In this document: piece by piece, positions 341 through 64,000 of the stretch
Layout: each line of letters begins with the position of its first letter
Position numbering within the stretch: the first letter of the stretch is position 1
NCBI GenBank assembly: GCA_964641255.1
Contig: CAZXMM010000001.1
Location: 409,984 to 473,983 of the forward strand
Source of the DNA: an uncultured Gammaproteobacteria bacterium
GTDB taxonomy: Bacteria; Patescibacteriota; Microgenomatia; JAMCZE01
Reading direction: 5' to 3'
DNA: 64,000 nucleotides
Notes under the pieces: model-generated
Databases searched by the model: none
What the model was told of the DNA's origin: nothing
The model's input: only the letters and a program-made list of their open reading frames with translations
Position numbers and translations under genes: made by a program

Positions 341-364
341 TAAGAATATATTATACTAGTCCTC
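341..364. promoter_or_regulatory. 24-bp divergent intergenic spacer between trmD start and the first glycan gene; AT-rich (aagaatatattatactagtcctc), TATA-like
   Basis: Start codons of oppositely oriented genes at 340 (-) and 365 (+). Only a TATATTATACT stretch lies between them, so the promoters must overlap or sit inside coding sequence. Confidence 0.3.
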
Positions 365-1114
365 ATGAAAAATATTGTGGTGGTAATGCCAACCTATAAC
401 GAAGCCGAAAATATTGGCCGAATGATTGACACGCTTGTTGGAGAGGAATTTCCAAAGATTAAAGACCACAAAATGATGCTTCTTGTTGTTGACGATCACT
501 CACCTGATGGTACTTGGAAGATAGTCCAGGAGAAACAAAAGAAGTATAAAAATATTTTCTTGAGTGATTCAGAAACGAAACGCGGTTTAGGTGGAGCCTA
601 TATTGATGGCTTTGGTTACGCGATTAAGGAATTAAAAGCCGATGGTATCATGGAGATGGATGCCGATTTTCAGCACGACCCCAAAGACGTAAAACGTTTT
701 GTGGCCGAATTTGATAAAGGTTATGACTATATTTTAGGCACTCGCTACATTCATGGCGGGTCAATTCCAAAAAACTGGGGATTTAAAAGAAAGTTTCTTT
801 CGGTAGTTGGTAATTGGTTTGGTCGCACAGCGCTCTTGTGGTTTGATATTCACGACCTAACCACTGGTTATCGTTTGGCTCGTGTTAAGGGATTTTTGGA
901 TCAGATGGATTTCAAACGAATTTTTTCTCGTTCCTATTCCTATAAATGGAGACTTATCTACGAGATGAAAAGTAGACGCGCGAAGATCAAAGAGATCGCG
1001 ATTATTTTTTCCCATCGTGAGAAGGGTTGGAGCAAAATGGATAGCGATGATTTTATTGAGAGTTTAAAAATCATTGGGCAAATTTGGCTGATACGACTTG
1101 GGCTACTTCAATGA
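365..1114 (+). CDS. GT2 polyprenyl-phosphate sugar synthase (Dpm1 / GtrB / CsbB-like)
   Basis: 249 aa with Dpm1-family motifs: VVMPTYNEAENI (N-terminal), VVDDHSPDGT (DxD/DDxS), EMDADFQHDP (DAD), and a C-terminal amphipathic/TM tail. Soluble GT-A size. Confidence 0.85.
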   Translation: MKNIVVVMPTYNEAENIGRMIDTLVGEEFPKIKDHKMMLLVVDDHSPDGTWKIVQEKQKKYKNIFLSDSETKRGLGGAYIDGFGYAIKELKADGIMEMDADFQHDPKDVKRFVAEFDKGYDYILGTRYIHGGSIPKNWGFKRKFLSVVGNWFGRTALLWFDIHDLTTGYRLARVKGFLDQMDFKRIFSRSYSYKWRLIYEMKSRRAKIKEIAIIFSHREKGWSKMDSDDFIESLKIIGQIWLIRLGLLQ

Positions 1115-1851
1115 AAACTCCACTTGTGGCGATAGTTGTTCCGACCCTGAATGAAGAAGGAGCCATTGGGGAGTTTCTTCGGTTACTCTTAATAGTTACC
1201 ACCGCGGAAAAAAAATTCCGCTGGCATCTGGTAGTAGTCGATAGTCAATCAGCGGACCGAACTACTGAAATAATTGACGCTTTTAAGCGAAGACACAAAG
1301 ATTTTTTGACCCTGATTAGTGCTCCCAGGGGTCTCGGGAGAAGTCTATTTTTAGGATTAGATTTTTGCTGTTTTAAACTTAAAGCCGATTATGCTATTAC
1401 TCTTGAGGCCGATCTATCAAACGACCCGAAACAGTTACCAGAATTTATCACCCCACTGACCACTGCCGATTTGGTAGTCGGTAGTCGCTATACAGCTGGT
1501 GGAAGAATTGAACACTGGTCATTTTGGCGCAAATTTCTAAGTTTTAGTGCCAACCTGACCTTACGGCTTTTAGTAGGAGGCAAAATTAAAGAGTACACCA
1601 ATCTCTATCGGAGCCTGCGCCTAACTAGCTGGAGAAAATTGCGACTGGGTTTAGTCAATACTACTGATTGGCTGTTTGTGCCCGCTTTAGTCTTTGAGGC
1701 AATTAGGCTCAAGCTTCGTATCAGTGAGATTCCAATTACTTATGCTGATCGAAGAGCGGGTCAGTCGAAGATGGATACCCCGTCTTATACCAAGAGCTTG
1801 CTCTTAGCTGCGATTCGCTTTAGAATGAATAAACATGGAACATTTTCTTAA
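1111..1851 (+). CDS. Dpm1/GtrB-like GT2 paralog with degenerate catalytic motifs
   Basis: ATG at 1111 overlaps the upstream stop (ATGA). Same fold pattern as the upstream gene, but the motifs are altered: VVPTLNEE, VVDSQSAD (instead of DDxSxD) and LEADLSND (instead of DAD). Confidence 0.7.
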   Translation: MKTPLVAIVVPTLNEEGAIGEFLRLLLIVTTAEKKFRWHLVVVDSQSADRTTEIIDAFKRRHKDFLTLISAPRGLGRSLFLGLDFCCFKLKADYAITLEADLSNDPKQLPEFITPLTTADLVVGSRYTAGGRIEHWSFWRKFLSFSANLTLRLLVGGKIKEYTNLYRSLRLTSWRKLRLGLVNTTDWLFVPALVFEAIRLKLRISEIPITYADRRAGQSKMDTPSYTKSLLLAAIRFRMNKHGTFS

Positions 1852-2299
1852 ATTTTTGGTGGTAGGGACGTTGGGTTTTATTATTAACACTCTAGGGCTA
1901 GTTCTGGGGGTAAAGGCTGGCCTTAGGCCCTCAATCGCTGCCCCAATCGGGTCTGAGGTGGCAATTATTTCCAATTTTATTTGGAATAACTTTTGGACAT
2001 TTTCTGACAAAGTAATTACCTCTCCCCAAGACATAGTCTTTAAGTTTATTCAGTTCAACTTTTTGTCCCTTGCTGCAGTGTTAATCCAGTTTGTGGCACT
2101 AAGACTGGGCGAGTTGCTGTTTGGAATGGTTAAATTCAAAGAGCCGTTTGTTAACTTACCCATTTTTGCTACCCTGCCATTTATCAAAAGGATACCGCTT
2201 GCCAAAAAGTTTTCCCTGTACTTTATCTTTTATATCGGTAGTGTTGGTCTCGGACTGGTGGTTAATTTCACTATGTACAGCCTCATTATTTGGCGTTAG
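1835..2299 (+). CDS. GtrA-family small membrane protein (putative polyprenyl-phosphate-sugar flippase)
   Basis: 154 aa with 4 predicted TM helices. N-terminus FLKFLVVGTLGFIINTLGLVL is typical of the GtrA family. It sits directly downstream of the Dpm1/GtrB-like pair. Confidence 0.8.
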   Translation: MEHFLKFLVVGTLGFIINTLGLVLGVKAGLRPSIAAPIGSEVAIISNFIWNNFWTFSDKVITSPQDIVFKFIQFNFLSLAAVLIQFVALRLGELLFGMVKFKEPFVNLPIFATLPFIKRIPLAKKFSLYFIFYIGSVGLGLVVNFTMYSLIIWR

Positions 2300-2306
2300 T
2301 AGCTAA

Positions 2307-3797
2307 ATGCGAAAACTACTCGGAACTACACTTCTTCCCCTTGTGTCCCTCATAGCTGTTGGGGCATTACTCCGGTTATACCGAATAGGCGACTATATTA
2401 GGTTTCTGGGCGATGAGGGTAGAGATGCGTTAGTCGTTAAAAGAATGATAGTGGAACACGACTGGACACTCCTTGGTCCCAACGCTTCGGTTGGTGGGTT
2501 TTATACCGGTCCAATTTACTATTACTTTATGTTGCCCTTTTTATGGTTGTCCAAGCTTGATCCGATTGGTCCGGCGGTAATGTCTGCTCTCTTTGGACTA
2601 CTAGCCATTGGTCTGATTTATTACTTTTGTCGACTGATCTTTAACCCCCGTGTGGCCCTCGTTGCGGCTGCCATTACTACTTTATCTCCGAAGTTTATCG
2701 AGATTTCGCGTTTTTCTTGGAACCCTAACCCCATTCCTGTCTTTGCACTGATAGTAGTCATCAGTCTCTATTTATCTTTCTTGCGCAAAAAATCTTATTA
2801 TGTTTTCTTTGCCGGTCTTGCTCTAGGGATAATGATCCAACTTCATTATTCGGGGCTAGTGTTTGTGGCAGTAATGGCTCCAATCGTGCTACTAATCCTT
2901 CCCCTTCGCAAGCTGCCCTTGACTATCCTGTTTGCCACTTTGGGTTTTGTTGCGGGTGAGTCACTTTTTTTAGTTTTTGAGGCTCGCCACGGATTTCCTA
3001 ATACTCGGACAGTTCTTGAGTTTTTTACGCGCCGCGATGACGGGGCCACTATTTCAGTCCAATTTGATATTTTAGGCAGCGCCAGAGACGTGCTGCGACG
3101 ACTTTATGAGACGGTGATTGGTACTGGTGGAATAGTGGTCGCTCTTTTGGCGACCTCTTCGTTAGTCGCACTAATTACCTGGGTAATTAGTCAGCGGGGA
3201 AAATTAGCTGACCGAGCCAAGGTAGTAGTTATTTTATCCTGGCTTTTAATGGGAACTTTAGGAACTACACTGTATCGGGGTCAGCTACTTGATCACTATT
3301 TCATTTTCCAATACCCTCTTGTCCCAATTTTTATTGCCCTACTTATTGACCGCCTTTTCAGGCTTAATTGGACAAGGTTTGTCTGTTTGGCGATTTTAAT
3401 ATTGGTATTTTACCTAGAAATTAGCCATTTATTTATTTGGTCTAACCCTAACTTTTTGGTCAGGCAGACAAAAGAGGTAGATAAACTGGTTTTAGATTTA
3501 GCTGGAGAGCGGCCCTACAATTTTGCCCTAATTGCCCCAGGTAATAGTGATCACGCATACCGCTATTTTCTAGAAATTCAAAACCGCAAGCCCGTAGTGG
3601 TGGAACCACCAGAGACCGACCCGATGAGGAATTCAATTACCGACCAGCTAATCGTAGTTTGCGAACAGAGAGATTGTAGTCCGCTGGGCTATCCTTTGTG
3701 GGAAGTCGCCGGTTTTGGGCGGGCGGAAATTGTTGATACGGTGATTGGCCCAGCTGGTATTAAAATTTTTAAACTTATCCACTATACTGGTACCTAA
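2307..3797 (+). CDS. Polytopic GT-C-like membrane glycosyltransferase, family A (ArnT/PMT_2-like)
   Basis: 496 aa with about 11-12 hydrophobic segments. First periplasmic loop reads RLYRIGDYIRFLGDEGRDALVVKRMI (DE motif). Paralogous to 28676-30181(-) and 13244-14812(-). Confidence 0.55.
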   Translation: MRKLLGTTLLPLVSLIAVGALLRLYRIGDYIRFLGDEGRDALVVKRMIVEHDWTLLGPNASVGGFYTGPIYYYFMLPFLWLSKLDPIGPAVMSALFGLLAIGLIYYFCRLIFNPRVALVAAAITTLSPKFIEISRFSWNPNPIPVFALIVVISLYLSFLRKKSYYVFFAGLALGIMIQLHYSGLVFVAVMAPIVLLILPLRKLPLTILFATLGFVAGESLFLVFEARHGFPNTRTVLEFFTRRDDGATISVQFDILGSARDVLRRLYETVIGTGGIVVALLATSSLVALITWVISQRGKLADRAKVVVILSWLLMGTLGTTLYRGQLLDHYFIFQYPLVPIFIALLIDRLFRLNWTRFVCLAILILVFYLEISHLFIWSNPNFLVRQTKEVDKLVLDLAGERPYNFALIAPGNSDHAYRYFLEIQNRKPVVVEPPETDPMRNSITDQLIVVCEQRDCSPLGYPLWEVAGFGRAEIVDTVIGPAGIKIFKLIHYTGT

Positions 3798-3798
3798 G

Positions 3799-4584
3799 AT
3801 GAAAAGTATCTACTTATCAGTCATAATTCCCTCCTACAACGAAACCGAGAATCTGAAGCGGGGAGTTTTGGACCAAGTTAACAGTTATCTTTCCAAGCAA
3901 AGCTATACTTGGGAAGTTATTGTGTCTGATGATGGTTCACCAGCTAAAGAATCTCGAGAGCTCGCTAAAGCCTTCTGTGATAATCATAAAGAGTTCACGT
4001 TTTTAGAGAACGCTCACGCCGGCAAACCCTTTGCTGTCTGGGCAGGCATCCAGAAAGCAAGCGGTAAGATTGTTCTTTTTACAGATATGGATCAGTCAAC
4101 TCCCATTACCGAGCTTTCAAAGCTTTTGCCTTATTTTGACCAAGGATACAAAATAGTCATTGGTAGTCGGGGCAGTGCTCGCAAAAATTCTAGCCCGCTG
4201 CGCTTGTTAGCCTCCACTGTATTTAGGGAAGTGCGCCGGACGTTCCTATTGAGAAATATTATCGATACTCAAGCCGGATTTAAAGCGCTTAATCGGGAAG
4301 TGGCACTAGAACTTTTCCCTCTGCTGCAAATTATCAGGCAGGGCGTCGAAGTAAACACCGGCTGGCGGGTTACTTCTTTTGATGTCGAACTACTCTACGC
4401 TGCGGAACGTAGAGGTTATAAGATAGCTGAGGTACCAGTGATTTGGGAAAACGAAGATTTAGCCATGGATACCAAAAAAAGCAGTAATAAGGGGAAATTT
4501 CTCAAAGAGTCGGTAGATATGCTGGGTGAGATTATCCGGGTGAAGAAAAATGCGATGCAGGGTCTTTACGATAAAAATAAATGA
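3799..4584 (+). CDS. GT2 polyprenyl-phosphate sugar synthase (Dpm1/GtrB-like)
   Basis: ATG at 3799 lies 1 nt after the upstream stop. Motifs LSVIIPSYNETENL, VSDDGSPAKES and FTDMDQSTP. Confidence 0.8.
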   Translation: MKSIYLSVIIPSYNETENLKRGVLDQVNSYLSKQSYTWEVIVSDDGSPAKESRELAKAFCDNHKEFTFLENAHAGKPFAVWAGIQKASGKIVLFTDMDQSTPITELSKLLPYFDQGYKIVIGSRGSARKNSSPLRLLASTVFREVRRTFLLRNIIDTQAGFKALNREVALELFPLLQIIRQGVEVNTGWRVTSFDVELLYAAERRGYKIAEVPVIWENEDLAMDTKKSSNKGKFLKESVDMLGEIIRVKKNAMQGLYDKNK

Positions 4585-5705
4585 TTGCGGTCTATTTGGC
4601 TTTACTGGGACTGTTGGGAATCTACACCTACTCTCAGATTGACCTTAACCTCACCCTTTTTCAGGCCCCTGTTTTTTTGACTTTCCAGCAGTACATGATC
4701 CAGTTAGGCTATTATCAAAGAACCTGGTCGGCAGCCCTTTTCCTTGGTCTCATCATTGGGCTCTTTGCACTTTACGGGTATTTTCTCAAGAATTTGCCCC
4801 TACTCACTAAGCGCCAATGGTTTTGTAGCGGGGTGGTTATTGGAATGGTAACACTTCTCTCTTACCCCGCGTTTTCCTACGATTTTTTTAATTATCTTTT
4901 TGACGCTCGTATTGTTACAGCGTATGGCCAAAACCCCTATTTTTTTAAAGCCCTAGACTTTCCTCTTGATCCCTGGATCCGTTTCATGCACTGGATCCAT
5001 CGCACTTATCCCTATGGTCCGGGTTGGCTCCTTATTACTACCCCATTGTCGTTTCTAGGTTTAGGGAAATTTGTTTTGACCGCTGTTTTATTCAAGTTAC
5101 TGTTTATTGCTAACTACTTTCTGGCATTATTTATAATTGGAAAAATCTACTCAATTATTAACCCCGAAAAAAGAACTTGGGCCCTTGTCTTTTTTGGATT
5201 AAACCCTCTTATTATTATAGAGACCCTCATTAGTCCCCATTTGGATGCAATTATGACCAGCTCTCTGTTATTAGGCTTTTACCTCATTTTAAAACAGCGC
5301 AAATGGCTCGCATTTCTGACCTTGATTTTTTCTGGCAGCATCAAGTTTCTGACTTGGGTTCTCATCCCCTTACACGGCATCAAACTTTCTTTTGAGAGAG
5401 GGGTAGAGCTATCCTTATTCTTATTAACACTAATTCTTGTTCCAGTGATTTTGCAGCGAGAGTTTTATCCCTGGTACGCAATTCCTCTGCTAGCCATAGT
5501 TGCGCTGTTGCCTAAAAGAAAATTTCTTCACTACTTGGCACTAGTTTTGTCCCTGGGGCTTCTTTGTCAGTACGGGTCCTTTCTTTACTTTGGAGAGTAC
5601 ACCACTCTTACTAGCTTGGTAAAACTAGGAGCCCTTTTGTTTCCTCTGGTTACTCTTTTGCCTCTCTATTTCGTTTCTAAGTATCCTTTTTCTTTCAAAG
5701 ATTGA
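4581..5705 (+). CDS. Polytopic membrane protein, candidate GT-C-type (possibly GT87/DUF2029-like mannosyltransferase) - function uncertain
   Basis: 374 aa with more than 9 hydrophobic helices. ATGA overlap with the upstream gene. Family assignment is tentative. Confidence 0.4.
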   Translation: MIAVYLALLGLLGIYTYSQIDLNLTLFQAPVFLTFQQYMIQLGYYQRTWSAALFLGLIIGLFALYGYFLKNLPLLTKRQWFCSGVVIGMVTLLSYPAFSYDFFNYLFDARIVTAYGQNPYFFKALDFPLDPWIRFMHWIHRTYPYGPGWLLITTPLSFLGLGKFVLTAVLFKLLFIANYFLALFIIGKIYSIINPEKRTWALVFFGLNPLIIIETLISPHLDAIMTSSLLLGFYLILKQRKWLAFLTLIFSGSIKFLTWVLIPLHGIKLSFERGVELSLFLLTLILVPVILQREFYPWYAIPLLAIVALLPKRKFLHYLALVLSLGLLCQYGSFLYFGEYTTLTSLVKLGALLFPLVTLLPLYFVSKYPFSFKD

Positions 5706-7366
5706 ACAAGAGCTGAAGCCTTATTTTTTTCAAAGTTGAAGTCTTCATCTAAATTGAAGTCTTGGGTTTTTGAACCTTTAAACTGTAAGCTGGGATTCAC
5801 ATCGTTGAGTCGGACATAGTTCTTGTTCAGAAAATCAATAAAGAAAGCATTATAGTCAGCTGAGCCGCCAAAAGCTGAGAAATAACGCTGGTAGACAATA
5901 ATGTCCGCTCGGTTAGCCGTGTAGTCGGCGATTACGCCGGATAAGAGTTTTGGACTGTTCACAAATTGTGGCAATATCCAATGATACTTAGACGGTACCT
6001 TGCAGTTTAGGTAATAGATTTCTTCAAACTGGAAGGGCCCCACCCAACAATAGTGGTCAGTGGGGACGACGGCATTAATTAGGGGTGCGACTTGGGGGCG
6101 GTCGTAAATAAGGGGCATAGTGCCCATATAGCGATTGTAGGTCATTCTCCAAAGCTCCATCGAGAAAAATAGAGTGGTAAATAGCCAGTAGATAAGGAGC
6201 CCGACAAAGGCAAACTTTAAAAACCCCGAAAATAGTGGTCCGTCTTCGCCTTGTTGGTCTTTGGCTATAAACCAGAAGAAGAAACTCGCATGGAAGAAAG
6301 TAATAAAGAAATACACTGCCGACTGGTAGTCGGTAGTTTGTGATGTGAGGGGATTGCCACGAACGGTACTGTAGACAATTAGTAAAAAGGAGAGTAAGAA
6401 CAATAGAAATTTCCGTTTCCATAGTAGGGTGACCCAAAGGACTACATTTGTCACTCCCATGGTGAGATTAAACGGCGTCATCAGATCTGTTCGGGTGATA
6501 CCAGAGAGTAGTACTTGATAGTTATTTAAGAAGTTATTCAAAATCACGATAGCATAGCGGATGGGGTTAAGGGAGGTTGATCCCGGAGGTCGAGGATAGT
6601 TATAGATGTAATAGTTTTTGTTATAGATGATAGCGTCAAAATAGTAGTCGGCTAAAGAGCCAGTGATTAAAAGATAGAGTAGAAAAAGACCATACGGTAG
6701 GCCAAAGATAAGAGCAAACAAAAGAACTTTTTTCACCAAAGCTTTATCGAGTCTAGTCTTTGTGGCCGTAACAAAAGAGACAAAGGTTACCAGGGTGAGG
6801 ATAATTGATTCATATAAATAGGTTGTCGACATGAGCATGGTGAGCGCGGAAAAGATTGACACGACGATAAGGTCAGCCTTCATCAGGGCTTGCCCTCTGT
6901 ACAATTTGACAAAGAGGAGAGTGTAAGCGGGGATCAGCATGTAACCACTTAGTGGATCGGCCAGAAACATATGACCCCAGAAATAGGTGGAAGCCAGGGC
7001 GATGAGGGGGGCGTAAATAAAAAAGAAGCCAGTATCCTGCCGATTTAACCGCTTTCTTAGTAACCATAGAGTTAACCCAAAAATCCCTAGGTAAAAAATT
7101 GCCGTCATAAGACGAAAACGCACGAACGATTGGTCTGAGAATATGCCTAGTAGCGCAGCAAAAAAGTAAGCTAGCGGGCCGTGGTGCGAAAAGAAGTCGC
7201 GATAAGGAAGTTTTCCCTTCAGAATGTCGTGTCCACCCAAAATATTATCAAATTCATCGGGATAACTATTGTGGACGCTATTAACTAAAAGAACAACTAG
7301 AAGACAAAAAAAGAAACTAAGAATTCTACGGTGTCTCTTTACAAAGTTCCACAAGGTGAGAACCAT
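5666..7366 (-). CDS. Polytopic membrane protein (GT-C-like candidate), unknown family
   Basis: 566 aa and highly hydrophobic throughout. Convergent with 4581-5705, overlapping its 3' end by 40 bp. Divergent from the YfhO gene at 7406. Confidence 0.4.
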   Translation of the reverse strand: MVLTLWNFVKRHRRILSFFFCLLVVLLVNSVHNSYPDEFDNILGGHDILKGKLPYRDFFSHHGPLAYFFAALLGIFSDQSFVRFRLMTAIFYLGIFGLTLWLLRKRLNRQDTGFFFIYAPLIALASTYFWGHMFLADPLSGYMLIPAYTLLFVKLYRGQALMKADLIVVSIFSALTMLMSTTYLYESIILTLVTFVSFVTATKTRLDKALVKKVLLFALIFGLPYGLFLLYLLITGSLADYYFDAIIYNKNYYIYNYPRPPGSTSLNPIRYAIVILNNFLNNYQVLLSGITRTDLMTPFNLTMGVTNVVLWVTLLWKRKFLLFLLSFLLIVYSTVRGNPLTSQTTDYQSAVYFFITFFHASFFFWFIAKDQQGEDGPLFSGFLKFAFVGLLIYWLFTTLFFSMELWRMTYNRYMGTMPLIYDRPQVAPLINAVVPTDHYCWVGPFQFEEIYYLNCKVPSKYHWILPQFVNSPKLLSGVIADYTANRADIIVYQRYFSAFGGSADYNAFFIDFLNKNYVRLNDVNPSLQFKGSKTQDFNLDEDFNFEKNKASALVQSLKEKGYLETK

Positions 7367-9790: not shown

Positions 9791-9791
9791 T

Positions 9792-14812: not shown

Positions 14813-14854
14813 ATGTACCGAGCAGGGCTCCTCACAGTAGGATATAATTGCTCA
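14813..14854. promoter_or_regulatory. Short divergent region with TATAAT hexamer (14841-14846) between the minus-strand gene start (14812) and the probable + gene start (14855)
   Basis: The sequence aggaTATAATtgctcaATGtccATG places a -10-like hexamer 8-14 nt upstream of the candidate ATGs. This would imply a leaderless or very short-leader mRNA. Confidence 0.25.
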
Positions 14855-18008: not shown

Positions 18009-18011
18009 ACT

Positions 18012-18824: not shown

Positions 18825-18827
18825 ACT

Positions 18828-34973: not shown

Positions 34974-34974
34974 T

Positions 34975-45675: not shown

Positions 45676-45726
45676 AAGACTTACTAGAGATAATACACCA
45701 AAATCGCTATACTTACGCCTGAGAAT

Positions 45727-46548: not shown

Positions 46549-46550
46549 CA

Positions 46551-48492: not shown

Positions 48493-48502
48493 GTTATTAA
48501 TC

Positions 48503-54957: not shown

Positions 54958-54960
54958 ATT

Positions 54961-55764: not shown

Positions 55765-55771
55765 TGGATTT

Positions 55772-56848: not shown

Positions 56849-56857
56849 TCTCAATAT

Positions 56858-58033: not shown

Positions 58034-59223
58034 CAATCATTCTTGACTGTGGTAGTTATCATTTGCAAAACCTCGGTGATATCGCCATGCTCCAAGTGAC
58101 TGAGCAGCAGATGAGAAAGTTTTGGCCCGAAGCAGGGATCTATGTTCTGACTCTCGTCCCCAAACGGTTGGCAGAATTTTGTCCACTAGCTTTGCCCTTG
58201 TCCACAGCGAGCCGTTATTTGTGGTTGGAACAACACCTCAAACGCATCAGCCATAAAGAACAGTGGGAGCAATTTCTTCATACCGCTGGTGCTCAAATTA
58301 CGGCTAAACCTGAAGAATTTAACCAAGTTTTTGCAAAGACCGATGCGGTAGTAGTCAGTGGCGGGGGCTTTATGAACGACATTTTTATCGATCACGCCAT
58401 TGATGTTTTAGATATGCTTGGGGAAGCCCAAAATCAGGGAAAGTGTACCGCGATGTTTGGTCAAGGATTTGGACCAGTGACTAATCCTGCTTTACTTGAG
58501 CGGATGAACCAGGTATTACCCCGTCTGGCAGTAGTAGGGCTACGGGAGAAATTATCCGGTCGTTCCTTAGTTAAAAATTTGGGGGTAACCGATCCCCAGA
58601 TTTTTGTGACCGGGGACGACTCTCTGGCTTTGGCTCCAAACAGAGAAAAACCAGGGGAGAGTATTGGGGTCAACTTGCGACTCTCCTACTATTCTGAGGT
58701 GACCCATAATCAAAGGCGAGCGGTAAAAGAAGCTGTTTTGGCTTTAACCGGGGAACTAGAAACTAAACTCGTTCCCTTGCCCATCTCTTTTTACCCGCAA
58801 GAGTCAGATGTTAAGAGTTTAACGTCTCTGTTTCCGGCCCAACTCTATCGCTACCCACTAGAGCGGGACGAAGAGTCGACTGTTCAATCAGCCTTGGCGC
58901 GCGCAGCTAGCTGTCGTACTGTTATTACTGGGAGTTATCATGGGGCGGTGTTTGCCCTGGCTTGCGGGGTTCCAGTAGTGGCACTGTCAGGCTCAACCTA
59001 TTATTTGGATAAATTTTTGGGTTTGGCAGATTTGTTTCCCGAAGGAGCGGTTCAAATTGTAGGTTTGGCCGATCGTTTTTTGCGTCTAAATCTGCAGTCG
59101 GCGACCAGAAAGGCCTGGGCTAAAGCCCATCTGCTAAAAGAGAAAATTTTACAAAGCGCAAAAGAACAAGCCCAACTGAGAGACCAAGCATATGAGAGGT
59201 TTTACGCTATACTTGAGCCATGA
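58030..59223 (+). CDS. Polysaccharide pyruvyl transferase family protein (CsaB/WcaK-like)
   Basis: N-terminal YHLQNLGDIAMLQV, then DAVVVSGGGFMNDIF. Both are characteristic of the PS_pyruv_trans family. Confidence 0.5.
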   Translation: MTIILDCGSYHLQNLGDIAMLQVTEQQMRKFWPEAGIYVLTLVPKRLAEFCPLALPLSTASRYLWLEQHLKRISHKEQWEQFLHTAGAQITAKPEEFNQVFAKTDAVVVSGGGFMNDIFIDHAIDVLDMLGEAQNQGKCTAMFGQGFGPVTNPALLERMNQVLPRLAVVGLREKLSGRSLVKNLGVTDPQIFVTGDDSLALAPNREKPGESIGVNLRLSYYSEVTHNQRRAVKEAVLALTGELETKLVPLPISFYPQESDVKSLTSLFPAQLYRYPLERDEESTVQSALARAASCRTVITGSYHGAVFALACGVPVVALSGSTYYLDKFLGLADLFPEGAVQIVGLADRFLRLNLQSATRKAWAKAHLLKEKILQSAKEQAQLRDQAYERFYAILEP

Positions 59224-60683
59224 AATCATTTTGGTTTGTTGCGCTTCTTTTGGTGGTCTCATTTAAACAATTGTTGTGGATTTCTGCTCTGCCAATCTTT
59301 CAGACGCCCGATGAACAGGCACACCTTGCCCAGCTGGCGTACTTAGCCGAACACCAGGTAACTAAAGTGCCAACCAATGTCGATTTATCCTTAGAAATTG
59401 CCACCACAGAAGAACTGCTTGGTACAAGACGTGATTCGTACGGCAATAATAAATTTACCTATCACCCTGAATTTAATATTACCTACAGTAAGGACCAAAC
59501 TGGAATCTTTGAAGTGGCGATGGCTACCCTTTCTGGGTCAGCAAGAACGGTATATGTGGGTGGGGAAGCAGCTCACTATCCACCACTCGGCTATGTGACT
59601 TCTCTACCATTCTATTATTTAGCCTATGATAGCTCGCTTATTGAGCGAATCTTTGCCTCTCGACTTCTTAATCTGATCATCCATCTTCTTCAGGTGCTGG
59701 TCGCCTATAAAATAGGTAAAACCATTTGGAAAAAGGAAAGGGAGGCTCTAGTGTTAGGCATTCTGGTTTCTTTTCAACCAATGATCTCCTTCGTGGCAGC
59801 GGGAATTCATCCGGATAACCTGCTTAATCTTTTGTACAGTTTGGGACTACTGTTTTTGTTGCGAGTTATCCGTGACGGGCTGCGCCTAAAACATCTTGTC
59901 GGCCTGGGTATAGTTCTAGTACTGGGTTTTTACACCAAACAACTCATTTTTCCGTTTTTTCCCCTAGCTCTGGCGACTCTGACCTATGTTCTACTTAAGA
60001 AAAAACGCCTGTTAGCTCTCGGCAGCTCCTTAGTCGTTCTTTTGGGACCAATCCCGCTATTTTTTGTTCCCATCTCGCTGCCCTATCTGCCTTTGGCTAC
60101 GGTCCATCATATTACGTTGCCCGAGTACCTTAATTTCCGGCTTAAGCGCCTAGTGTTTGAAATGTGGCCTTGGTACTGGGGAGTGTTTCGCTGGTTAAGT
60201 CTCGCCTTGCCCCGAGAAGTCATGCGACTAATTACCCGGGTGGCCCTGCTGGCAAGTGTAGGAATAGGTATCTATTTTTTGAAAGTAGTCACTAAAAGAC
60301 AACCGCTAACTTTTGAGGCCAAGGCGGCGATTCTTTTTCTGGTCTCGACCCTAACCTATATTATTTACCTATTCCTATGGGATTTTCGCTTAATGGACTA
60401 CTTGGGTTTTTCTCAGGGCCTCCAGGGCCGTTATCTATTCCCCAATATTGTGGCTCATCTAGCCCTGTTCCAACTAGGAATCATGACCTTGTTTAGCTTT
60501 AGAAAAAGACTGCAACAAGCGGTACTGGGTGTTTTAGCTGCCGCGATGGTGGGGCTAAATGTCGTTTCTTGGTGGCTCCTCTCCACGAGCTATTACGGAA
60601 CTGAGTGGCAGATGTTTCTGTTGCGCGCCTCACAGTACAAACCCGACTGGATTAAAGAAATGATCGGACTCCTGATACAATAA
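59220..60683 (+). CDS. Polytopic membrane protein (GT-C-like; PDE-motif loop), unknown family
   Basis: 487 aa with about 11 TM helices. First loop LPIFQTPDEQAHLAQLAYLAEHQ has the D-E pair typical of GT-C first loops. Confidence 0.4.
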   Translation: MKSFWFVALLLVVSFKQLLWISALPIFQTPDEQAHLAQLAYLAEHQVTKVPTNVDLSLEIATTEELLGTRRDSYGNNKFTYHPEFNITYSKDQTGIFEVAMATLSGSARTVYVGGEAAHYPPLGYVTSLPFYYLAYDSSLIERIFASRLLNLIIHLLQVLVAYKIGKTIWKKEREALVLGILVSFQPMISFVAAGIHPDNLLNLLYSLGLLFLLRVIRDGLRLKHLVGLGIVLVLGFYTKQLIFPFFPLALATLTYVLLKKKRLLALGSSLVVLLGPIPLFFVPISLPYLPLATVHHITLPEYLNFRLKRLVFEMWPWYWGVFRWLSLALPREVMRLITRVALLASVGIGIYFLKVVTKRQPLTFEAKAAILFLVSTLTYIIYLFLWDFRLMDYLGFSQGLQGRYLFPNIVAHLALFQLGIMTLFSFRKRLQQAVLGVLAAAMVGLNVVSWWLLSTSYYGTEWQMFLLRASQYKPDWIKEMIGLLIQ

Positions 60684-60688
60684 CTTTA

Positions 60689-61906
60689 ATGCGTAGTCTG
60701 ACTCAAAGCATCATCCTAACCGGCGGTACCGTCGTTAACTCTGTCTTGGGATTAGTATTTTACATTGTTATCGGCCGCACACTTTCTCTTGAGGCAGTAG
60801 GTTATTTTTCCTTTCTTTTAGGAATTGGGGTGCTTGCCGCTGACATTGGCGATCTAGGGGTGAGCCCCAGCATTATCCGCTTTGGACACGGTGACAGATT
60901 CCGAGCGGTTTTTTCAGTCGCTCTCCTTCAGCGAACTATGGTTGGTGCCATTTTTTTTGCCACTGCGCTGATAGCCCAACAATTCTATCCCGCTAATTTC
61001 TTTCTATCAGCGCTAGTGGCCTCATGCTTACTGCTCCTTTCTACAATCCTGCAGTCATTTTTAGCCAAACAAAGGTATGGTCTTTATGTTGGCGCCAGTC
61101 TTCTGAGCAATATTTTTCGCTTAGGAGCGGTACTAGGGCTCATCTCAGGGAGTCTGCTGACGATAGACAGCGCCCTCCTAGCTATGGTGGCCGCCAATCT
61201 CCTAGCTCTTAGTCTTGGGTTTATCGCCCTTTGTCTTTTAGAGAGAGGGCTTCCTTTGGTAAGGTCGGGTTTGAGCAAAATGTTGGGAGAAATGGCCCGT
61301 TTTGGCAGCTTTCTCGGTTTTTCGCTTTCGGTTAGCGCCCTAGCCTCCAAACTGGATAATCCCTTAGTCTTTTCGCTGGCTGGTCCCCAAGCGGCGGGGC
61401 TGTATTTTACCGCTCAGCGCTTAAGTTCCATTGTTCCCCAGGTAGCCGGCTCTCTTGATGGTGTCTTTGCCCCGAAGTTTTCTAAAGGCGAGGAAATTCG
61501 CAAACACTTTCGGGAATACGTGCTTTTTGCCGGTGTAGCAGCGCTAGGAATCTTGGTCGTGGTACCTTTCACTCCCTTGTTGCTTGCCTTTATCTTCGGT
61601 CCCAAATACGAGCTGGCAGCTCGGCTGCTTCAGGTTCTGTTTGTGGGAATGAGCCTTTTTATCTTTTCTGGTCCCTTCACTTCCTCACTGATATACCGGT
61701 TTAGTCAGACCAAGCTCCATTTTTTTACATCTCTTGTGCAACTGGCACTGAGCGTCGCCTTTATGGCTCTGCTAATTCCCCATTTTGCGGCCACTGGGGC
61801 GGCTTTGGCCTTTGTCATTGTCCAAGGACTGGATCTAGTAGCCATGATCAGTTTATATATAATCTTTAATTCGCGTGATCAAAATAACCACTCACACTCT
61901 CGTTAA
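60689..61906 (+). CDS. Wzx-type flippase / polysaccharide biosynthesis membrane protein (second copy)
   Basis: 405 aa with about 12 TM helices. N-terminus SIILTGGTVVNSVLGLVFYIVIGRTLSLEAVGYFSFLLGIGVLAADIGDLGVS is typical of the Wzx/PST family. Confidence 0.6.
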   Translation: MRSLTQSIILTGGTVVNSVLGLVFYIVIGRTLSLEAVGYFSFLLGIGVLAADIGDLGVSPSIIRFGHGDRFRAVFSVALLQRTMVGAIFFATALIAQQFYPANFFLSALVASCLLLLSTILQSFLAKQRYGLYVGASLLSNIFRLGAVLGLISGSLLTIDSALLAMVAANLLALSLGFIALCLLERGLPLVRSGLSKMLGEMARFGSFLGFSLSVSALASKLDNPLVFSLAGPQAAGLYFTAQRLSSIVPQVAGSLDGVFAPKFSKGEEIRKHFREYVLFAGVAALGILVVVPFTPLLLAFIFGPKYELAARLLQVLFVGMSLFIFSGPFTSSLIYRFSQTKLHFFTSLVQLALSVAFMALLIPHFAATGAALAFVIVQGLDLVAMISLYIIFNSRDQNNHSHSR

Positions 61907-62663
61907 AAACGAGGAAAACTTTATCTGGTTTGCCCTCAATTCCGTTCGCAAATTCGCCACTGAGATGCTCGTCTTTGATGATAATTCCACTGACAAGACC
62001 GCTGAAATTTTGAACTCAATCCGCGACCCTAAACTGAAAGTTACTAGAGGGACCTTAACCACGGCAGGAGACATTCGTAATACTATGCTTAAGGAAACCA
62101 AAACAGATTGGTTTCTTTTGCTGGATGGAGATGAAGTCTGGAATGAAAAGACACTTGAGAAACTACTGGATTTCTTGGAGGATTGTCCTCGGGATGTTTG
62201 GGGAGTTGTGATGAGAACAAGAAATTGTATCGGAGACGTCTATCATTATCAGCCCGAAAGTGCGGGACAATACACCCTGTTAGGTAGAAAGGGTAATCTA
62301 AATATTCGCGCCTATCGGAAACTTCCCAACCTACAGTGGTGTTGGGATTATCCCAGGGAAACTTACTGTGATTTGAGAGAAAATCCTATCAATAACCAAG
62401 ATGCTCATTTGCGTTTTTTTGATGACCACTATTGGCATATGACCTATTTGCCAAGGACGAGTAGCACGGCAGAGCGCAAACATCCCCAGCGACTCAAGAC
62501 GGAATGGGGAATTAAAATTAAAAATGTATCGGAATTACCAGAAGTTTTTTTTGTTGATCGGCCGTCCATGGTTCCTAATCCCTTACAAAATAGGAGGTCT
62601 AGCTACACATTGCGTGCCAGCCTAGTGAGCCCACTGTTGCGCTTGAAAAGGAGTCTACAATGA
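61875..62663 (+). CDS. GT2-like (GT-A) glycosyltransferase
   Basis: HTLVKNEENFI, LVFDDNSTDKT and LLLDGDEVW. Confidence 0.65.
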   Translation: MIKITTHTLVKNEENFIWFALNSVRKFATEMLVFDDNSTDKTAEILNSIRDPKLKVTRGTLTTAGDIRNTMLKETKTDWFLLLDGDEVWNEKTLEKLLDFLEDCPRDVWGVVMRTRNCIGDVYHYQPESAGQYTLLGRKGNLNIRAYRKLPNLQWCWDYPRETYCDLRENPINNQDAHLRFFDDHYWHMTYLPRTSSTAERKHPQRLKTEWGIKIKNVSELPEVFFVDRPSMVPNPLQNRRSSYTLRASLVSPLLRLKRSLQ

Positions 62664-63445
62664 AACGAGCGGCGATTAAGAGAAAGATTTGGCAAAATGA
62701 AAGGTATTACCAACATATTGCCACCATTGACCGATTTGATCATCCGGGATTTCTTTTCATAAAAGCGAAAAGTAAAACTGCTAGTGCCATTTTAGATGTA
62801 GGCTGTGGTGATGGCAGTAAATTGTCGAATTTCGGAAGCGCGCAGTCTCGCTTATTTGGGTGTGACATCAGCAGTGCGGGGATTGCTCGGGGGAAAAAAT
62901 TGTATCCCCAAATCAAGTTTTCGGTATTTGACGGGCTGACACTGCCGTACGAGGATAATTTCTTTGATTTGGTGACGACGATGTTTGTTTTGGAACACAC
63001 CAGCAATCCAGAGCCATTAATTAACGAAATGGTAAGAGTGACAAAAATAGGTGGCTATATAGCCTTTCTGGCACCTAATTTTGGCGCTCCCAATAGAGCC
63101 TCGCCAAACTTTGTGGGATCAAGATGGAAAAAACTAGCTTGTGGACTGCTTAATTTCTTTTTGATCAGTGGGAAAAACTTAAACTGGCAACTTGTCGAAC
63201 CCAAGGCGCTATCTATGGATTCATTTACTATTGACAGTGATACGACTGTCGAGCCTTATGTTTACTCGCTGCAGCATTTTGTAAAAAATTTAAATTGTCA
63301 CATTGTTTTTAGCTCCTCTTATTGGGAAATGGAGCAACCGGGGGCAAAATTTCTGCAAAGACTGTTTAAATTCTTAGGAACGAGCGGGCTTGCCCCATTT
63401 AAATATTTCGGCCCCCACCTTTTTGTATTTGCACAAAAGAAATGA
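62660..63445 (+). CDS. Class I SAM-dependent methyltransferase (Methyltransf_11-like)
   Basis: ILDVGCGDGSKLSNF, LFGCDIS and FDLVTTMFVLEHT. Confidence 0.8.
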   Translation: MKRAAIKRKIWQNERYYQHIATIDRFDHPGFLFIKAKSKTASAILDVGCGDGSKLSNFGSAQSRLFGCDISSAGIARGKKLYPQIKFSVFDGLTLPYEDNFFDLVTTMFVLEHTSNPEPLINEMVRVTKIGGYIAFLAPNFGAPNRASPNFVGSRWKKLACGLLNFFLISGKNLNWQLVEPKALSMDSFTIDSDTTVEPYVYSLQHFVKNLNCHIVFSSSYWEMEQPGAKFLQRLFKFLGTSGLAPFKYFGPHLFVFAQKK

Positions 63446-64000
63446 AAATAGCCTTTTTAAGCTTATATATGGGACATGTACCAAGGGGGGTAGAAACTTT
63501 TGTATTTGAAGTAGCTAATAGGCTCGCTAAAAAACACGAGGTGACCGTTTATCAGGGTGGACCCACGCTAAAAGGTGCGGTCTACAAAACAGTGGAAGTA
63601 ACTACAGAAATTGATTGGAACCAAAAAGATTCTCGAGGAACCCTATTGAAATTGTTTTTAATAGATTACTGGAGCCTTCTTCTTAAAAAATTCACCCTGG
63701 CAACCCTAAAGCTGTTCGATTCCTCTGTAGACATCGTCTTCCCCACGAATGGAGGCTGGCAAAGTGTGTTGATCAGGCTCTGGTCTATGGTAAAAGGTAT
63801 ACCCATGGTCATTGCCGGCCAATCTGGTCCCGGAGTCGATGATAGGATTAATCTCCTCTGTCGTCCCAATACCTTTATCAGTTTGACAGACTATCAAAGC
63901 CAGTGGGCCAAGCGAAATGGTTTCGGTGTTCCGGTAATAAAAATTCCGAATGGAGTGGATTTAGGGGTGTTTAATCCCAAGATTACACCAGCCAAAGTCG
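63442..64000 (+). CDS. GT4 family glycosyltransferase, N-terminal part (continues beyond window end)
   Basis: ATG at 63442 overlaps the upstream TGA (ATGA). Open frame to the window end, MKIAFLSLYMGHVPRGVETFVFEVANRLAKKHEVTVYQGG..., typical of a GT4 N-terminal domain. Not in the ORF track because it is unterminated. Confidence 0.6.
   Translation, partial: MKIAFLSLYMGHVPRGVETFVFEVANRLAKKHEVTVYQGGPTLKGAVYKTVEVTTEIDWNQKDSRGTLLKLFLIDYWSLLLKKFTLATLKLFDSSVDIVFPTNGGWQSVLIRLWSMVKGIPMVIAGQSGPGVDDRINLLCRPNTFISLTDYQSQWAKRNGFGVPVIKIPNGVDLGVFNPKITPAKV

Follow-up and report, generated by a model that had tools for sequence, protein, structure and literature searches.

MptA and MptB, membrane enzymes with a counterpart of the GT-C type in the locus described here, act on lipomannan. 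The characterised bacterial YfhO and PMT_2 enzymes listed in PMC8035078 target teichoic acids and cell-wall polysaccharides, and two gene architectures, the GT2+DUF2304 pair and the GT2-GtrA-PMT_2 triplet, are set out there, both of which are found in the window, that is, the whole 64-kb stretch of DNA analysed. No close relative of any enzyme of the locus has been characterised, and no description of such dense arrays of membrane glycosyltransferases was found in the literature. An uncultured Microgenomates (CPR) bacterium with a tiny genome commits a 64-kb stretch to 54 sugar-handling genes, about 21 of which encode membrane enzymes that would add sugars outside the cell.

The window makes up about 7% of one 0.95-Mb (950,062-bp) contig and is given over to sugar-handling genes; its proteins are identical to those of this contig and their named relatives belong to Microgenomates/Patescibacteria, in agreement with the small-genome organism proposed in the initial annotation. 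The ORF listing contains 54 genes from 365 to 64000, including 53 complete non-nested ORFs and one truncated by the right edge, the same count as suggested earlier, and the left boundary, outside the locus, is

1..338 (approx.), minus: trmD, N-terminal 113 aa only (PF01746, E 9.8e-19)

The ORFs were annotated by Pfam/NCBIfam profile searches using NCBIfam equivalog cut-offs and Pfam gathering scores. By profile or fold searches, 50 of the 54 genes were assigned to glycan-related families (GT, GT-C, flippase, exporter and sugar modifiers), so the view that every gene except trmD is glycan-related stands for these 50, the role of g32, g38, g41 and g48 being suggested by context alone. This is the opposite of the outcome named in the initial annotation as grounds for rejection, namely profiles leaving most ORFs unassigned. 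The packing is extreme, with a gap of no more than 10 nt or an overlap at 44 of the 45 same-strand junctions, but the ATGA coupling ascribed to most genes is less common than claimed, as just 16 of the 45, about one third, show a start/stop overlap of 4 nt. No initiating phosphoglycosyl transferase, nucleotide-sugar gene, recognisable Wzy polymerase or ligase, or candidate acceptor protein was detected in the window with the Pfam/NCBIfam profiles.

The window contains a set of 21 polytopic GT-C candidates, 20 of them supported and one (g30) probable, which agrees with the earlier estimate of about 20:

2307..3797, plus: g04, PMT_2, family B (PF13231 3.5e-10; DE at residues 36-37)
4581..5705, plus: g06, MptA/B-like (GT87-like; NCBIfam TIGR03459 MptA 3.4e-10, partial coverage)
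5666..7366, minus: g07, predicted GT-C fold, Patescibacteria family without Pfam model (AF2 pLDDT 92.4)
7406..9790, plus: g08, YfhO, family C (PF09586 5.2e-22)
9780..11354, plus: g09, PTPS_related, family D (PF10131 7.6e-12)
11307..13247, minus: g10, predicted GT-C fold, orphan family, AglB-like C-terminal globular domain (AlphaFold model)
13244..14812, minus: g11, PMT_2, family B (PF13231 4e-08; DD at residues 50-51)
14813..16585, plus: g12, PTPS_related, family D (PF10131 3.3e-10)
19858..22071, plus: g16, YfhO, family C (PF09586 6.3e-34)
22073..23737, plus: g17, PMT_2, family A (PF13231 2.1e-08; DE motif)
23734..25377, plus: g18, PMT_2, family A (PF13231 7.9e-14)
25374..27038, plus: g19, PMT_2, family A (PF13231 2.2e-08)
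27016..28701, minus: g20, PMT_2, family A (PF13231 3.2e-10)
28676..30181, minus: g21, divergent family B relative (hhalign against family B 99.7%, E 3.5e-26, 451 columns; no Pfam match)
30185..31807, plus: g22, PMT/PMT_2, family A (PF02366 1.3e-10; PF13231 2.4e-10)
31804..33315, plus: g23, PMT_2, most divergent member of family A (PF13231 7.9e-15)
33312..34973, plus: g24, PMT_2, family A (PF13231 2e-08)
34927..36693, plus: g25, PTPS_related, family D (PF10131 8.5e-09)
39131..40303, plus: g29, PIG-V/GT76-like (via homologs; no direct Pfam match)
40303..41760, plus: g30, polytopic membrane protein, probable GT-C (family-B HMM E 1.4e-6, 53-sequence search)
59220..60683, plus: g50, DUF2142 (PF09913 1.3e-16; DE at residues 31-32)

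Fifteen of these (g04, g08, g09, g11, g12, g16-g20, g22-g25 and g50) pass the Pfam gathering scores of GT-C-clan families, namely PMT_2/PMT (about 10), YfhO (two), PTPS_related (three) and DUF2142, and five (g06, g07, g10, g21 and g29) are supported by other evidence. Orthologs of g06 in the related loci L004 and L063 match PF26314 (MptA_B_family). Without a Pfam match, g07 has at least 325 homologs and an invariant YPDEFD motif, and the best Foldseek matches of its model are ArnT, STT3, PglB, AglB, Pmt4 and AftA, while g10 resembles oligosaccharyltransferases and DPY19; the high-confidence AlphaFold models of both match GT-C structures only, which points to a GT-C fold. By sequence, no solved structure was matched with the profiles built for g07, g10, g29 or family A. 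The protein g29 has 6437 representative homologs; 17 out of 35 match PF04188 (PIG-V Mannosyl_trans2) and others PMT_2, GT87 or ALG10, and its true start is probably 39191, as an identical database protein begins at residue 21. The evidence for g30 as a probable GT-C protein is weak, since besides the family-B HMM match it includes an hhalign probability of just 29% against family B and DD at residues 32-33, after TM1, with no match in Pfam, NCBIfam or PDB.

The GT-C proteins span at least nine sequence families, comprising paralog families A (seven genes), B (two, plus g21), C (two) and D (three) and five to six singletons, in line with the four or more paralog families predicted. A putative catalytic-type DE/DD motif is located directly after TM1 in 12 of them (all seven of family A, g04, g07, g11, g30 and g50).

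Eleven GT2 genes are present (g01, g02, g05, g14, g26, g27, g31, g40, g42, g47 and g52), and all their NCBIfam matches are below the equivalog cut-offs. For five of them the top matches are the polyprenyl-P-sugar synthases PgfS, ArnC, AglJ and PpgS, which fits the five Dpm1/GtrB-like synthases listed before; the GtrA protein listed there is confirmed as well. These five and the small membrane proteins are:

365..1114, plus: g01, GT2, polyprenyl-P-sugar synthase-like, no TM helices (PF00535 9.1e-27; PgfS/AglJ/ArnC/PpgS top, below cut-off)
1084..1851, plus: g02, GT2 resembling polyprenyl-P-sugar synthases, 31% identical to its paralog g01 (PF00535 5.6e-14; ArnC, AglJ top)
1835..2299, plus: g03, GtrA/DPMS-TM family small membrane protein (PF04138 2.3e-14)
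3745..4584, plus: g05, GT2, polyprenyl-P-sugar synthase-like (PF00535 3.9e-23; ArnC, PgfS top)
36690..37406, plus: g26, GT2, polyprenyl-P-sugar synthase-like (PF00535 1.1e-35; AglJ full-length 1.1e-23)
41763..42455, plus: g31, GT2, PpgS/AglJ-like polyprenyl-P-sugar synthase (PpgS 3.4e-40 full-length, below cut-off; AglJ 1.2e-37)
42452..42796, plus: g32, DUF2304 small membrane protein (PF10066 2.5e-19; ATGA overlap with g31)

The g03 protein may be a flippase or a membrane partner of g01/g02, as PF04138 also includes the DPM-synthase membrane domain, and g32 is likely the partner of g31, the two resembling GT2+DUF2304 pairs of the GacI/GacJ or PpgS/Rv3632 type. The five synthase-like GT2, the GtrA-family protein, this pair and the roughly 20 GT-C proteins, 12 with DE/DD after TM1, agree with the proposed extracytoplasmic use of polyprenyl-phosphate-linked donors.

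The remaining genes code for soluble transferases, transporters and modifying enzymes:

16560..18008, plus: g13, Wzx/MOP-family flippase (PF13440 1.5e-48; PF01943; MurJ)
18012..18824, plus: g14, GT2 (PF00535 1.3e-14)
18828..19901, plus: g15, GT4 (PF00534 2.3e-17)
37407..38189, plus: g27, GT2 (PF00535 1e-19)
38170..39219, plus: g28, GT4 (PF00534 7.3e-20)
42793..43896, plus: g33, GT4 (PF00534 4.4e-43)
43874..44932, plus: g34, GT4 (PF00534 1.9e-22)
44899..45852, minus: g35, class I SAM methyltransferase (PF13649 2.9e-17)
45727..46548, plus: g36, ABC-2 permease, Wzm-like (PF01061 3.6e-20)
46551..47768, plus: g37, ABC ATPase, weak Wzt_C-like C-terminal domain (PF00005 1.3e-22; PF14524 1e-3, below cut-off)
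47746..48492, plus: g38, possible methyltransferase (sole match Methyltransf_24, E 0.15)
48503..49375, plus: g39, GT47, exostosin-like (PF03016 4.8e-20)
49497..50366, plus: g40, GT2 (PF00535 5.8e-29)
50363..51010, plus: g41, possible methyltransferase (LHLGCG motif; no family match in profile searches)
51007..51741, plus: g42, GT2, TuaG/EpsE-like (PF00535 1.7e-30; TuaG 1.4e-28)
51738..53450, plus: g43, GT6 domain (residues 2-210) and 360-aa C-terminal part (PF03414 7.8e-43; NF041524 5.4e-58, below cut-off)
53429..54070, plus: g44, probable methyltransferase (PF13578 E 6.3e-4, below cut-off)
54070..54957, plus: g45, GT11, alpha-1,2-fucosyltransferase family (PF01531 5.7e-35)
54961..55764, plus: g46, FkbM-type methyltransferase, marginal (PF05050 22.7 bits, exactly at the cut-off)
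55772..56848, plus: g47, GT2, EpsE-like (PF00535 1.2e-37; EpsE 1.5e-42)
56858..58033, plus: g48, protein with PP-loop motif SGGVDS at residues 123-128 (QueC E 0.15; no PDB relative)
58030..59223, plus: g49, polysaccharide pyruvyl transferase (PF04230 3.2e-31)
60689..61906, plus: g51, Wzx-type flippase (PF01943 5.3e-13)
61875..62663, plus: g52, GT2 (PF00535 1.1e-20)
62660..63445, plus: g53, class I SAM methyltransferase (PF08241 8.1e-20)
63442..64000, plus: g54, GT4 truncated at the end of the window, N-terminal part present (PF13439 1.2e-06; ATGA overlap with g53)

The profiles recovered the expected five GT4 (g15, g28, g33, g34 and g54), GT6, GT11, GT47 and pyruvyl transferase, both Wzx flippases and the ABC-2 exporter (permease and ATPase). 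Instead of about eight further GT2 there are six, or seven if the C-terminal part of g43, with its weak GT-A similarity (GT2, E 0.034), is included. Among the six methyltransferases named, g35 and g53 are firm and g44 and g46 marginal, whereas g38 and g41 were not confirmed, and of the PP-loop amidoligase the motif in g48 stands, with weak family support. The locus is composite, consisting of the GT-C array, an ABC-transporter cluster whose GC content is lower, and a cluster for Wzx and pyruvylation.

The best reading of this gene content is a transmembrane glycosylation system coupled to Wzx- and ABC-dependent glycan pathways. We consider it likely that this conserved Microgenomates envelope-glycosylation locus is a greatly expanded multi-component system of that kind whose main acceptor is an envelope glycopolymer or lipoglycan. 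Such an acceptor is favoured over proteins because the Wzx, ABC exporter, GT4/GT2 and pyruvyl transferase genes are polymer-pathway genes, and because MptA/B act on lipomannan. The characterised bacterial YfhO and PMT_2 enzymes compiled in the literature, too, modify teichoic acids and cell-wall polysaccharides (PMC8035078). It is possible, though a good deal less probable, that the array serves chiefly protein glycosylation, with the PMT-like family A using polyprenyl-P-sugars to O-glycosylate Ser/Thr residues in pilus, S-layer or secreted proteins, g10 (perhaps g07) transferring Wzx-flipped oligosaccharides to proteins in an oligosaccharyltransferase-like manner and the other GT-C extending the protein-linked glycans, as suggested by the match of family A to PMT (GT39 protein O-mannosyltransferases) and by the resemblance of g10 to oligosaccharyltransferases and DPY19.

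The gene order from trmD onward through the family A block is shared with two relatives and was found in one JGI contig and one Logan contig from differing samples; trmD also adjoins the locus in L063. Orthologs in two other assemblies show 42-75% identity (60% for g17 in L001) versus 23-45% among in-window paralogs, and the order is the same as well; the paralogs are old and each individually retained. In the two closest relatives, L001 and L004, which carry additional PMT_2 genes, g02, g20 and g25 have no one-to-one ortholog. This, together with the GC content of 0.36-0.40 at 46-56 kb versus 0.43-0.45 elsewhere in the window and the typical strain variability of GT6/GT11-type clusters, might suggest interchangeable variable cassettes, a hypervariable serotype-like region for phage escape or host switching with few genes active at once. 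That explanation is unlikely, as one-to-one orthologs of most GT-C genes, closer than any in-window paralog, lie in conserved order in two independent assemblies, all ORFs are intact with catalytic motifs retained, and the paralog identity of 23-45% implies no repeats or invertible elements.

Beyond these relatives, 58 other loci were retrieved, 55 bacterial and three archaeal, the lineage-named bacterial ones all being Microgenomates (Gottesman-, Levy-, Roizman-, Woese- and Daviesbacteria). The bacterial loci typically have 5-11 genes of the families described here per 21.6 kb. The locus is not a one-off, and dense GT-C arrays are widespread in the class Microgenomates. A chance juxtaposition or assembly chimera of unrelated clusters, suggested by the three pathway types and the GC step near 46 kb, is highly improbable given the repeated order in the JGI and Logan contigs, the location of all window proteins on a single contig and the dense GT-C neighbourhoods in 50+ genomes.

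In the preferred envelope-polymer system, g01, g02, g05, g26 and g31, judged by their best family matches, would charge polyprenyl phosphate with single sugars taken from nucleotide sugars, on the inner side of the membrane, g31 probably together with g32, and g03, perhaps also g13, would bring these lipid-linked sugars across to the outer side. The GT-C enzymes, each presumably with a separate linkage or acceptor specificity, would pass them to extracytoplasmic acceptors, an activity that we infer from their identity, and some of them, such as the OST-like g10 and the PMT-like family A, may target proteins. Cytoplasmic GT4/GT2 with g13 and g51 would assemble and flip lipid-linked oligosaccharides, the cluster at 45.7-56.8 kb (Wzm/Wzt, GT47, GT2, GT6, GT11 and methyltransferases) would produce a second, ABC-transporter-dependent glycan, and the third cluster at 56.9-64 kb would contribute pyruvylation. 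The glycopolymer or lipoglycan would be built up and decorated step by step on the outside of the membrane, as mycobacteria make lipomannan, LAM and arabinogalactan and as Gram-positive teichoic acids and secondary cell-wall polysaccharides are decorated.

The 54 genes of the window, numbered g01 to g54 from left to right, occupy positions 365-64000 and consist, according to the six-frame ORF listing, of 53 complete non-nested ORFs and one ORF truncated by the right edge, with practically no non-coding DNA. No tRNA (ARAGORN) or RNA family (Rfam) was detected in the window. The GC content is 0.42-0.46, save for a drop to 0.36-0.40 at 46-56 kb. At 44 of the 45 same-strand junctions the genes either overlap or are separated by a gap of at most 10 nt. 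The initial annotation had most genes coupled by ATGA overlaps, but 4-nt start/stop overlaps were counted at only 16 of the 45, about one third. Other junctions overlap by 11-126 nt when longest-ORF starts are used, and at the g28/g29 junction (39131-39219) the database protein for g29 begins 20 codons downstream, at 39191; several other genes thus probably also start further downstream than listed, and some of the long overlaps may in fact be short ones. A scan for promoters and terminators between 44 and 64 kb gave a signal no higher than that of shuffled controls and yielded no operon boundaries.

Family assignments in the window (GT-C families by Pfam; soluble and transport genes by Pfam and NCBIfam scans)
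First ~338 bases, minus strand: trmD N-terminus at the left edge, outside the locus (PF01746, E 9.8e-19)
g04, g11, g17-g20, g22-g24: PMT_2/PMT, Pfam gathering score passed
g08, g16: YfhO, Pfam gathering score passed
g09, g12, g25: PTPS_related, Pfam gathering score passed
g50: DUF2142, Pfam gathering score passed
g01, g02, g05, g14, g26, g27, g31, g40, g42, g47, g52: GT2 (11 genes)
g15, g28, g33, g34, g54: GT4 (five genes)
g43: GT6, fused with a second, weakly GT-A-like domain
g45: GT11
g39: GT47
g49: polysaccharide pyruvyl transferase
g03: GtrA-family protein
g32: DUF2304 protein
g13, g51: Wzx-type flippases
g36, g37: ABC-2 permease (PF01061, 3.6e-20) and ATPase (PF00005, 1.3e-22)
g35, g53: methyltransferases, firm
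g44, g46: methyltransferases, marginal

The locus encodes 21 polytopic proteins, which are 374-794 aa long and each contain 6-12 hydrophobic segments. Fifteen of them score above the Pfam gathering thresholds for GT-C families, among which YfhO, PTPS_related and DUF2142 are taken here to be members of Pfam's GT-C clan, and six (g06, g07, g10, g21, g29 and g30) have no Pfam match. Grouping by BLAST and HMM comparison gave four paralog families: the PMT_2-type families A (seven members, 27-45% identical) and B (g04 and g11), family C with the two YfhO proteins and family D with the three PTPS_related proteins. Within family A, g22 alone passes the threshold of PF02366 PMT (41.7 bits), and precomputed annotation gives PF02366 for many family A homologs. 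The family A profile found no Pmt structure among PDB sequences at E ≤0.01, and the profiles of family A, g07, g10 and g29 had no GT-C match there. Since hhalign probabilities among g07, g10, g29 and families A-D were low, these three proteins were treated as representing families of their own. The tally comprises 20 supported GT-C proteins and one probable (g30), belonging to at least nine sequence families, in good agreement with the approximately 20 transferases in at least four paralog families proposed in the initial annotation. A DE or DD pair just after TM1, within residues 31-70, is found in 12 of the 21 proteins; the loop-1 DE is present in all seven family A paralogs, with D38 and E39 invariant. 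The retention of these pairs argues that the paralogs would be catalytically competent, and the presence of ArnC/PpgS/AglJ-like GT2 genes in the same locus speaks for the predicted use of polyprenyl-phosphate- or diphosphate-linked donors.

As for the proteins having no Pfam match, g06 shows a partial match to the MptA model, and its orthologs in two relatives match PF26314 (MptA_B_family), in keeping with an MptA/B-like GT-C protein. The alignment of g21 and its orthologs with family B has an hhalign probability of 99.7% over 451 columns. g29 belongs to a large family of 6437 representatives, 17 of whose 35 sampled members match PIG-V Mannosyl_trans2, the others matching PMT_2, GT87 or ALG10. 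A role of g29 as Wzy polymerase or O-antigen ligase was rejected because its relatives match PIG-V, PMT_2 and GT87, not Wzy_C. The case for g30 is weak, consisting of a DD pair after TM1 and a match to the family B HMM (E 1.4e-6 in a 53-sequence search; hhalign 29%); as no relatives were found in Pfam, NCBIfam or PDB, nor any match in a metagenome scan with g30 as query, it is graded as a probable GT-C protein.

At least 325 homologs belong to the g07 family; where a source is named it is almost always a Patescibacteria lineage, and among the homologs listed a single one, P0255, bears a Pfam domain (PF26265). The YPDEFD motif after TM1 (D37 E38) is invariant in the family. The AF2 model of g07 (pLDDT 92.4, pTM 0.91) has ArnT, STT3, PglB, AglB, Pmt4 and AftA as its best Foldseek matches. 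Both g07 and g10 are linked to GT-C by fold comparison only, and their models predict that they are GT-C proteins by fold. Outside Patescibacteria, to which the g07 family is otherwise confined, distant members sharing 22-26% identity (E 1e-15 to 2e-24) were found in the methanogen-related archaea Methanoperedens, Methanolinea and an uncultured archaeon (loci L060, L061 and L062), with no GT-C array around them.

g10 (11307-13247) represents an orphan GT-C family with 42 homologs in an index of 5.8 billion proteins, none of them carrying a Pfam domain. Its invariant residues (G111, D140, P156, P157, Y170, K307, Y309, N352, G413 and Q453) fall in motifs such as CCRGVPDAIYH and NFPPxEPG, and its C-terminal domain structurally resembles that of AglB-S2. 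Compared with STT3/PglB/AglB and DPY19, g10 has no detectable sequence similarity, and its structural scores to ALG12, AftA and ArnT are equally good. No match to Pfam, PF02516 STT3 included, appeared at E up to 10, and the family profile found no oligosaccharyltransferase among PDB sequences. Since a WWDYG-type motif (W[WYF]D[YFWH]G) is present in none of 36 family members, g10 was not taken to be a true oligosaccharyltransferase.

The top NCBIfam matches of five GT2 proteins (g01, g02, g05, g26 and g31) are the polyprenyl- or dolichyl-phosphate sugar synthases PgfS, ArnC, AglJ and PpgS. The highest score is that of g31 against PpgS, 137.8 bits with an equivalog cut-off of 370, and the other four score 45-84 bits versus cut-offs of 325-529, so that none of the five reaches the curated equivalog cut-off of the characterised ArnC/GtrB/DPM1/PpgS-type families; by these scores they are relatives of PgfS/ArnC/AglJ/PpgS, not identified orthologs. 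Where about eight further GT2 genes had been listed, six were found, or seven if the weak C-terminal domain of g43 is counted, and of the six methyltransferases named at the same time two (g35 and g53) are firm, the remaining four being either marginal or, as with g38 and g41, having no significant family in Pfam or NCBIfam. g48 (56858-58033, 391 aa), translationally coupled through ATGA to the pyruvyl transferase gene g49, had been called a PP-loop amidoligase; the PP-loop motif SGGVDS is indeed seen at residues 123-128, and the protein also contains a cysteine cluster CGRCDYC, but the motif is the sole basis for the name, with no significant relative in Pfam, NCBIfam or PDB. ABC-2 permease and ABC ATPase, the combination that marks Wzm/Wzt-type export, are both present as g36 and g37, the tail of the latter matching Wzt_C under the cut-off (E 1e-3).

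Among the 54 genes no initiating phosphoglycosyl transferase (Bac_transf or MraY/WecA-like) and no nucleotide-sugar synthesis genes were detected, nor was any Wzy-type polymerase or ligase, although two Wzx genes and an ABC exporter are present. In the closest JGI relative (locus L063, 19554-21707) trmD again borders the locus, and genes coding for an RmlD-like epimerase/reductase and an RmlC-like dTDP-sugar isomerase are located directly beyond it. From this one may suspect that the locus is fed with dTDP-rhamnose-type sugars, and by likeness to this relative, rml-like genes may also lie just left of the window in the source genome.

Within the low-GC segment (46000-56000; GC 0.36-0.40 versus 0.43-0.45 elsewhere) the genes g43-g45 are found at 51738-54957. 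g43 codes for a 570-aa protein in which a DAD-containing GT6 domain is followed by the weakly GT-A-like one, and g45, two genes away, belongs to the GT11 (alpha-1,2-fucosyltransferase) family. In E. coli O86, GT6 and GT11 together produce blood-group A/B/H-like epitopes; such a pairing is, to our knowledge, unusual for a CPR (candidate phyla radiation) genome. The low GC content suggests that this sub-cluster was acquired separately or is variable.

Database proteins 100% identical to g07, g08, g10, g17 and g43 are carried on a 950,062-bp contig (NCBI and Logan). The named homologs of the window proteins come from Microgenomates, the host's group within CPR, namely Gottesman-, Curtiss-, Levy-, Roizman-, Woese- and Daviesbacteria, and the gene order is retained in two independent assemblies, a 203-kb JGI contig and a 95.5-kb Logan contig. 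The common order starts with trmD, GT2-GtrA-PMT_2-GT2-MptA/B-like, g07, YfhO, PTPS_related and g10 and continues with PMT_2, PTPS_related, Wzx, GT2, GT4 and YfhO up to the family A block. Most GT-C paralogs have one-to-one orthologs in two relatives, and these are 42-75% identical, whereas paralogs within the window share 23-45%, so the duplications are old and most copies have been kept in these relatives; the source genome has three additional copies (g02, g20 and g25), and the two relatives own extra PMT_2 genes. The paralogs might alternatively be regarded as variable cassettes, and this explanation could still hold for the low-GC segment at 46-56 kb; in the left 45 kb it is disfavoured, as one-to-one orthology contradicts it. 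A chimera or chance juxtaposition is ruled out by the synteny in independent assemblies.

A search of species-representative genomes with the g07 family found 58 loci, for each of which the matches to the HMMs of families A-D, g07 and g10 were counted within ±10 kb; a search of contigs of such genomes with g17 as query gave no match. Full-length loci mostly carry 5-11 GT-C family genes per 21.6 kb, one example being a complete 762-kb Levyibacteriota chromosome, and the array is absent from three distant archaeal loci. By these counts, dense arrays of predicted GT-C genes are widespread among the sampled Microgenomates genomes, the window being a large example. Among L006-L057, many TPA metagenome-assembled genomes with a Microgenomates-type locus bear the title 'uncultured Gammaproteobacteria bacterium' and others 'Deltaproteobacteria' or 'Acidiferrales', labels that appear to be wrong.

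In multi-component transmembrane glycosylation a GT-A enzyme makes a C55-P-sugar, a GtrA- or Wzx-type protein flips it and a GT-C enzyme, which bears an acidic motif in an outer loop, attaches the sugar to a wall polymer, as in CsbB/GtcA/YfhO, GtlA/GtcA/GtlB, GacI/GacJ/GacK/GacL and CsdAB/CD/EF with CflA (PMC8035078). Some of the GT-A enzymes are soluble and need a separate small membrane protein, and a single flippase, such as CflA of L. lactis, can serve several GT-C enzymes (PMC8035078). The co-occurrence of GT2 synthase, GtrA/Wzx flippase and GT-C by which such systems are defined (PMC8035078) is found in the window, where g01/g02, g03 and g04 (GT2, GT2, GtrA and PMT_2) are adjacent, g31-g32 form a GT2 and DUF2304 pair and there are two Wzx genes. 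Judging from its gene set, the locus most likely codes for a system of this type. With five synthases and one GtrA for approximately 20 GT-C proteins, several GT-C enzymes would share each polyprenyl-P-sugar donor and differ in acceptor or linkage.

Cytoplasmic GT4 and GT2 genes together with Wzx are located inside the GT-C array and to its right, followed by an ABC-transporter-dependent cluster at 45.7-56.8 kb and a pyruvylation/DUF2142/Wzx cluster at 56.9-64 kb. We infer that the main acceptor is an envelope glycopolymer or lipoglycan, which is favoured because Wzx, ABC-exporter and pyruvyl transferase genes belong to polymer pathways and because the characterised bacterial YfhO and PMT_2 enzymes act on polymers (PMC8035078). 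A much bolder proposal, to which we give little credence, is that Microgenomates, perhaps CPR generally, build their main surface glycoconjugate almost wholly outside the cytoplasm with an assembly line of approximately 20 GT-C enzymes, which would correspond in bacteria to the ER-lumenal ALG/PIG/PMT/OST machinery and would include at least two unclassified GT-C families (g07 and g10, the latter having a C-terminal domain like that of AglB), with g10 proteins forming a new kind of oligosaccharyltransferase lacking WWDYG.

The mechanism class is already known, and the locus is an expansion of it; what looks new is how large and contiguous the array is, that it is conserved in many Microgenomates genomes and that two of its GT-C families have no Pfam models. 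No description of GT-C arrays in CPR or Microgenomates was found in open-access papers and preprints, the literature covered. Few CPR bacteria have been cultured. Their genomes measure about 1 Mb and they presumably live attached to other cells, for which reason the chemistry of their surface is likely to be central to how they live. One glycosylation locus taking up approximately 7% of a 0.95-Mb contig, with most of its GT-C paralogs kept as one-to-one orthologs in two relatives, argues for an envelope glycan that is complex, conserved and functionally important. Striking for both glycobiologists and CPR researchers, the locus provides a testable parts list of five candidate lipid-sugar synthases, approximately 20 GT-C proteins and two families that lack Pfam models and have high-confidence structure models, of use in glycobiology as a source of new GT-C specificities, in the design of lectin or antibody probes for capturing Microgenomates and in the annotation of g07- and g10-type proteins now labelled 'hypothetical'.

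The Gram-positive systems and GtrABC have the same parts as the window, a GT2 synthase, GtrA or Wzx and a YfhO- or PMT_2-type GT-C with an acidic motif in a predicted outer loop, and the soluble GT2 with a small membrane partner in GacI/GacJ recurs in g31 and g32. The reviewed species, however, have one to three GT-A/GT-C pairs scattered in the genome (PMC8035078), whereas the window brings together five synthases, one GtrA and approximately 20 GT-C proteins contiguously in a genome of about 1 Mb and adds PTPS_related, MptA/B-like, PIG-V-like, DUF2142 and two unclassified GT-C families. No window member is near enough in sequence to the characterised Gram-positive enzymes to infer the sugar or acceptor.

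The cluster at 45.7-56.8 kb shares an ABC-2 permease, an ATPase and several GT2 genes with ABC-transporter-dependent (Wzm/Wzt) O-antigen or glycan clusters; its methyltransferases could cap the chain as in ABC-dependent glycan clusters, and GT6 lies near GT11 as in blood-group-like clusters such as that of E. coli O86. Unlike in O-antigen clusters, the host is a monoderm-like CPR bacterium with no LPS, and in contrast to O86-type clusters the GT6 domain is fused to a second GT-A-like domain and GDP-fucose genes and an initiating transferase are absent from the window.

In mycobacteria, many GT-C enzymes and few polyprenyl-P-sugar donors take part in the stepwise assembly of lipoglycans and cell-wall polysaccharides outside the membrane, with polyprenyl-P-mannose serving PimE, MptA/B/C and Pmt, and the mycobacterial and corynebacterial set comprises PimE, MptA/B/C, EmbA/B/C, AftA-D, Pmt and Rv3779 with PpgS/Rv3632. 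The window resembles this assembly in the MptA/B-like g06, in g31 and g32, which recall PpgS and its DUF2304 partner, and in g07 and g10, whose models superpose on AftA. The mycobacterial genes are dispersed across a genome of 4.4 Mb, most of them being members of other families (GT53, GT85, GT87 and GT89), whereas in the window the arabinose-donor (DPA) pathway genes are absent, the genes are contiguous, and PMT_2, YfhO and PTPS_related dominate.
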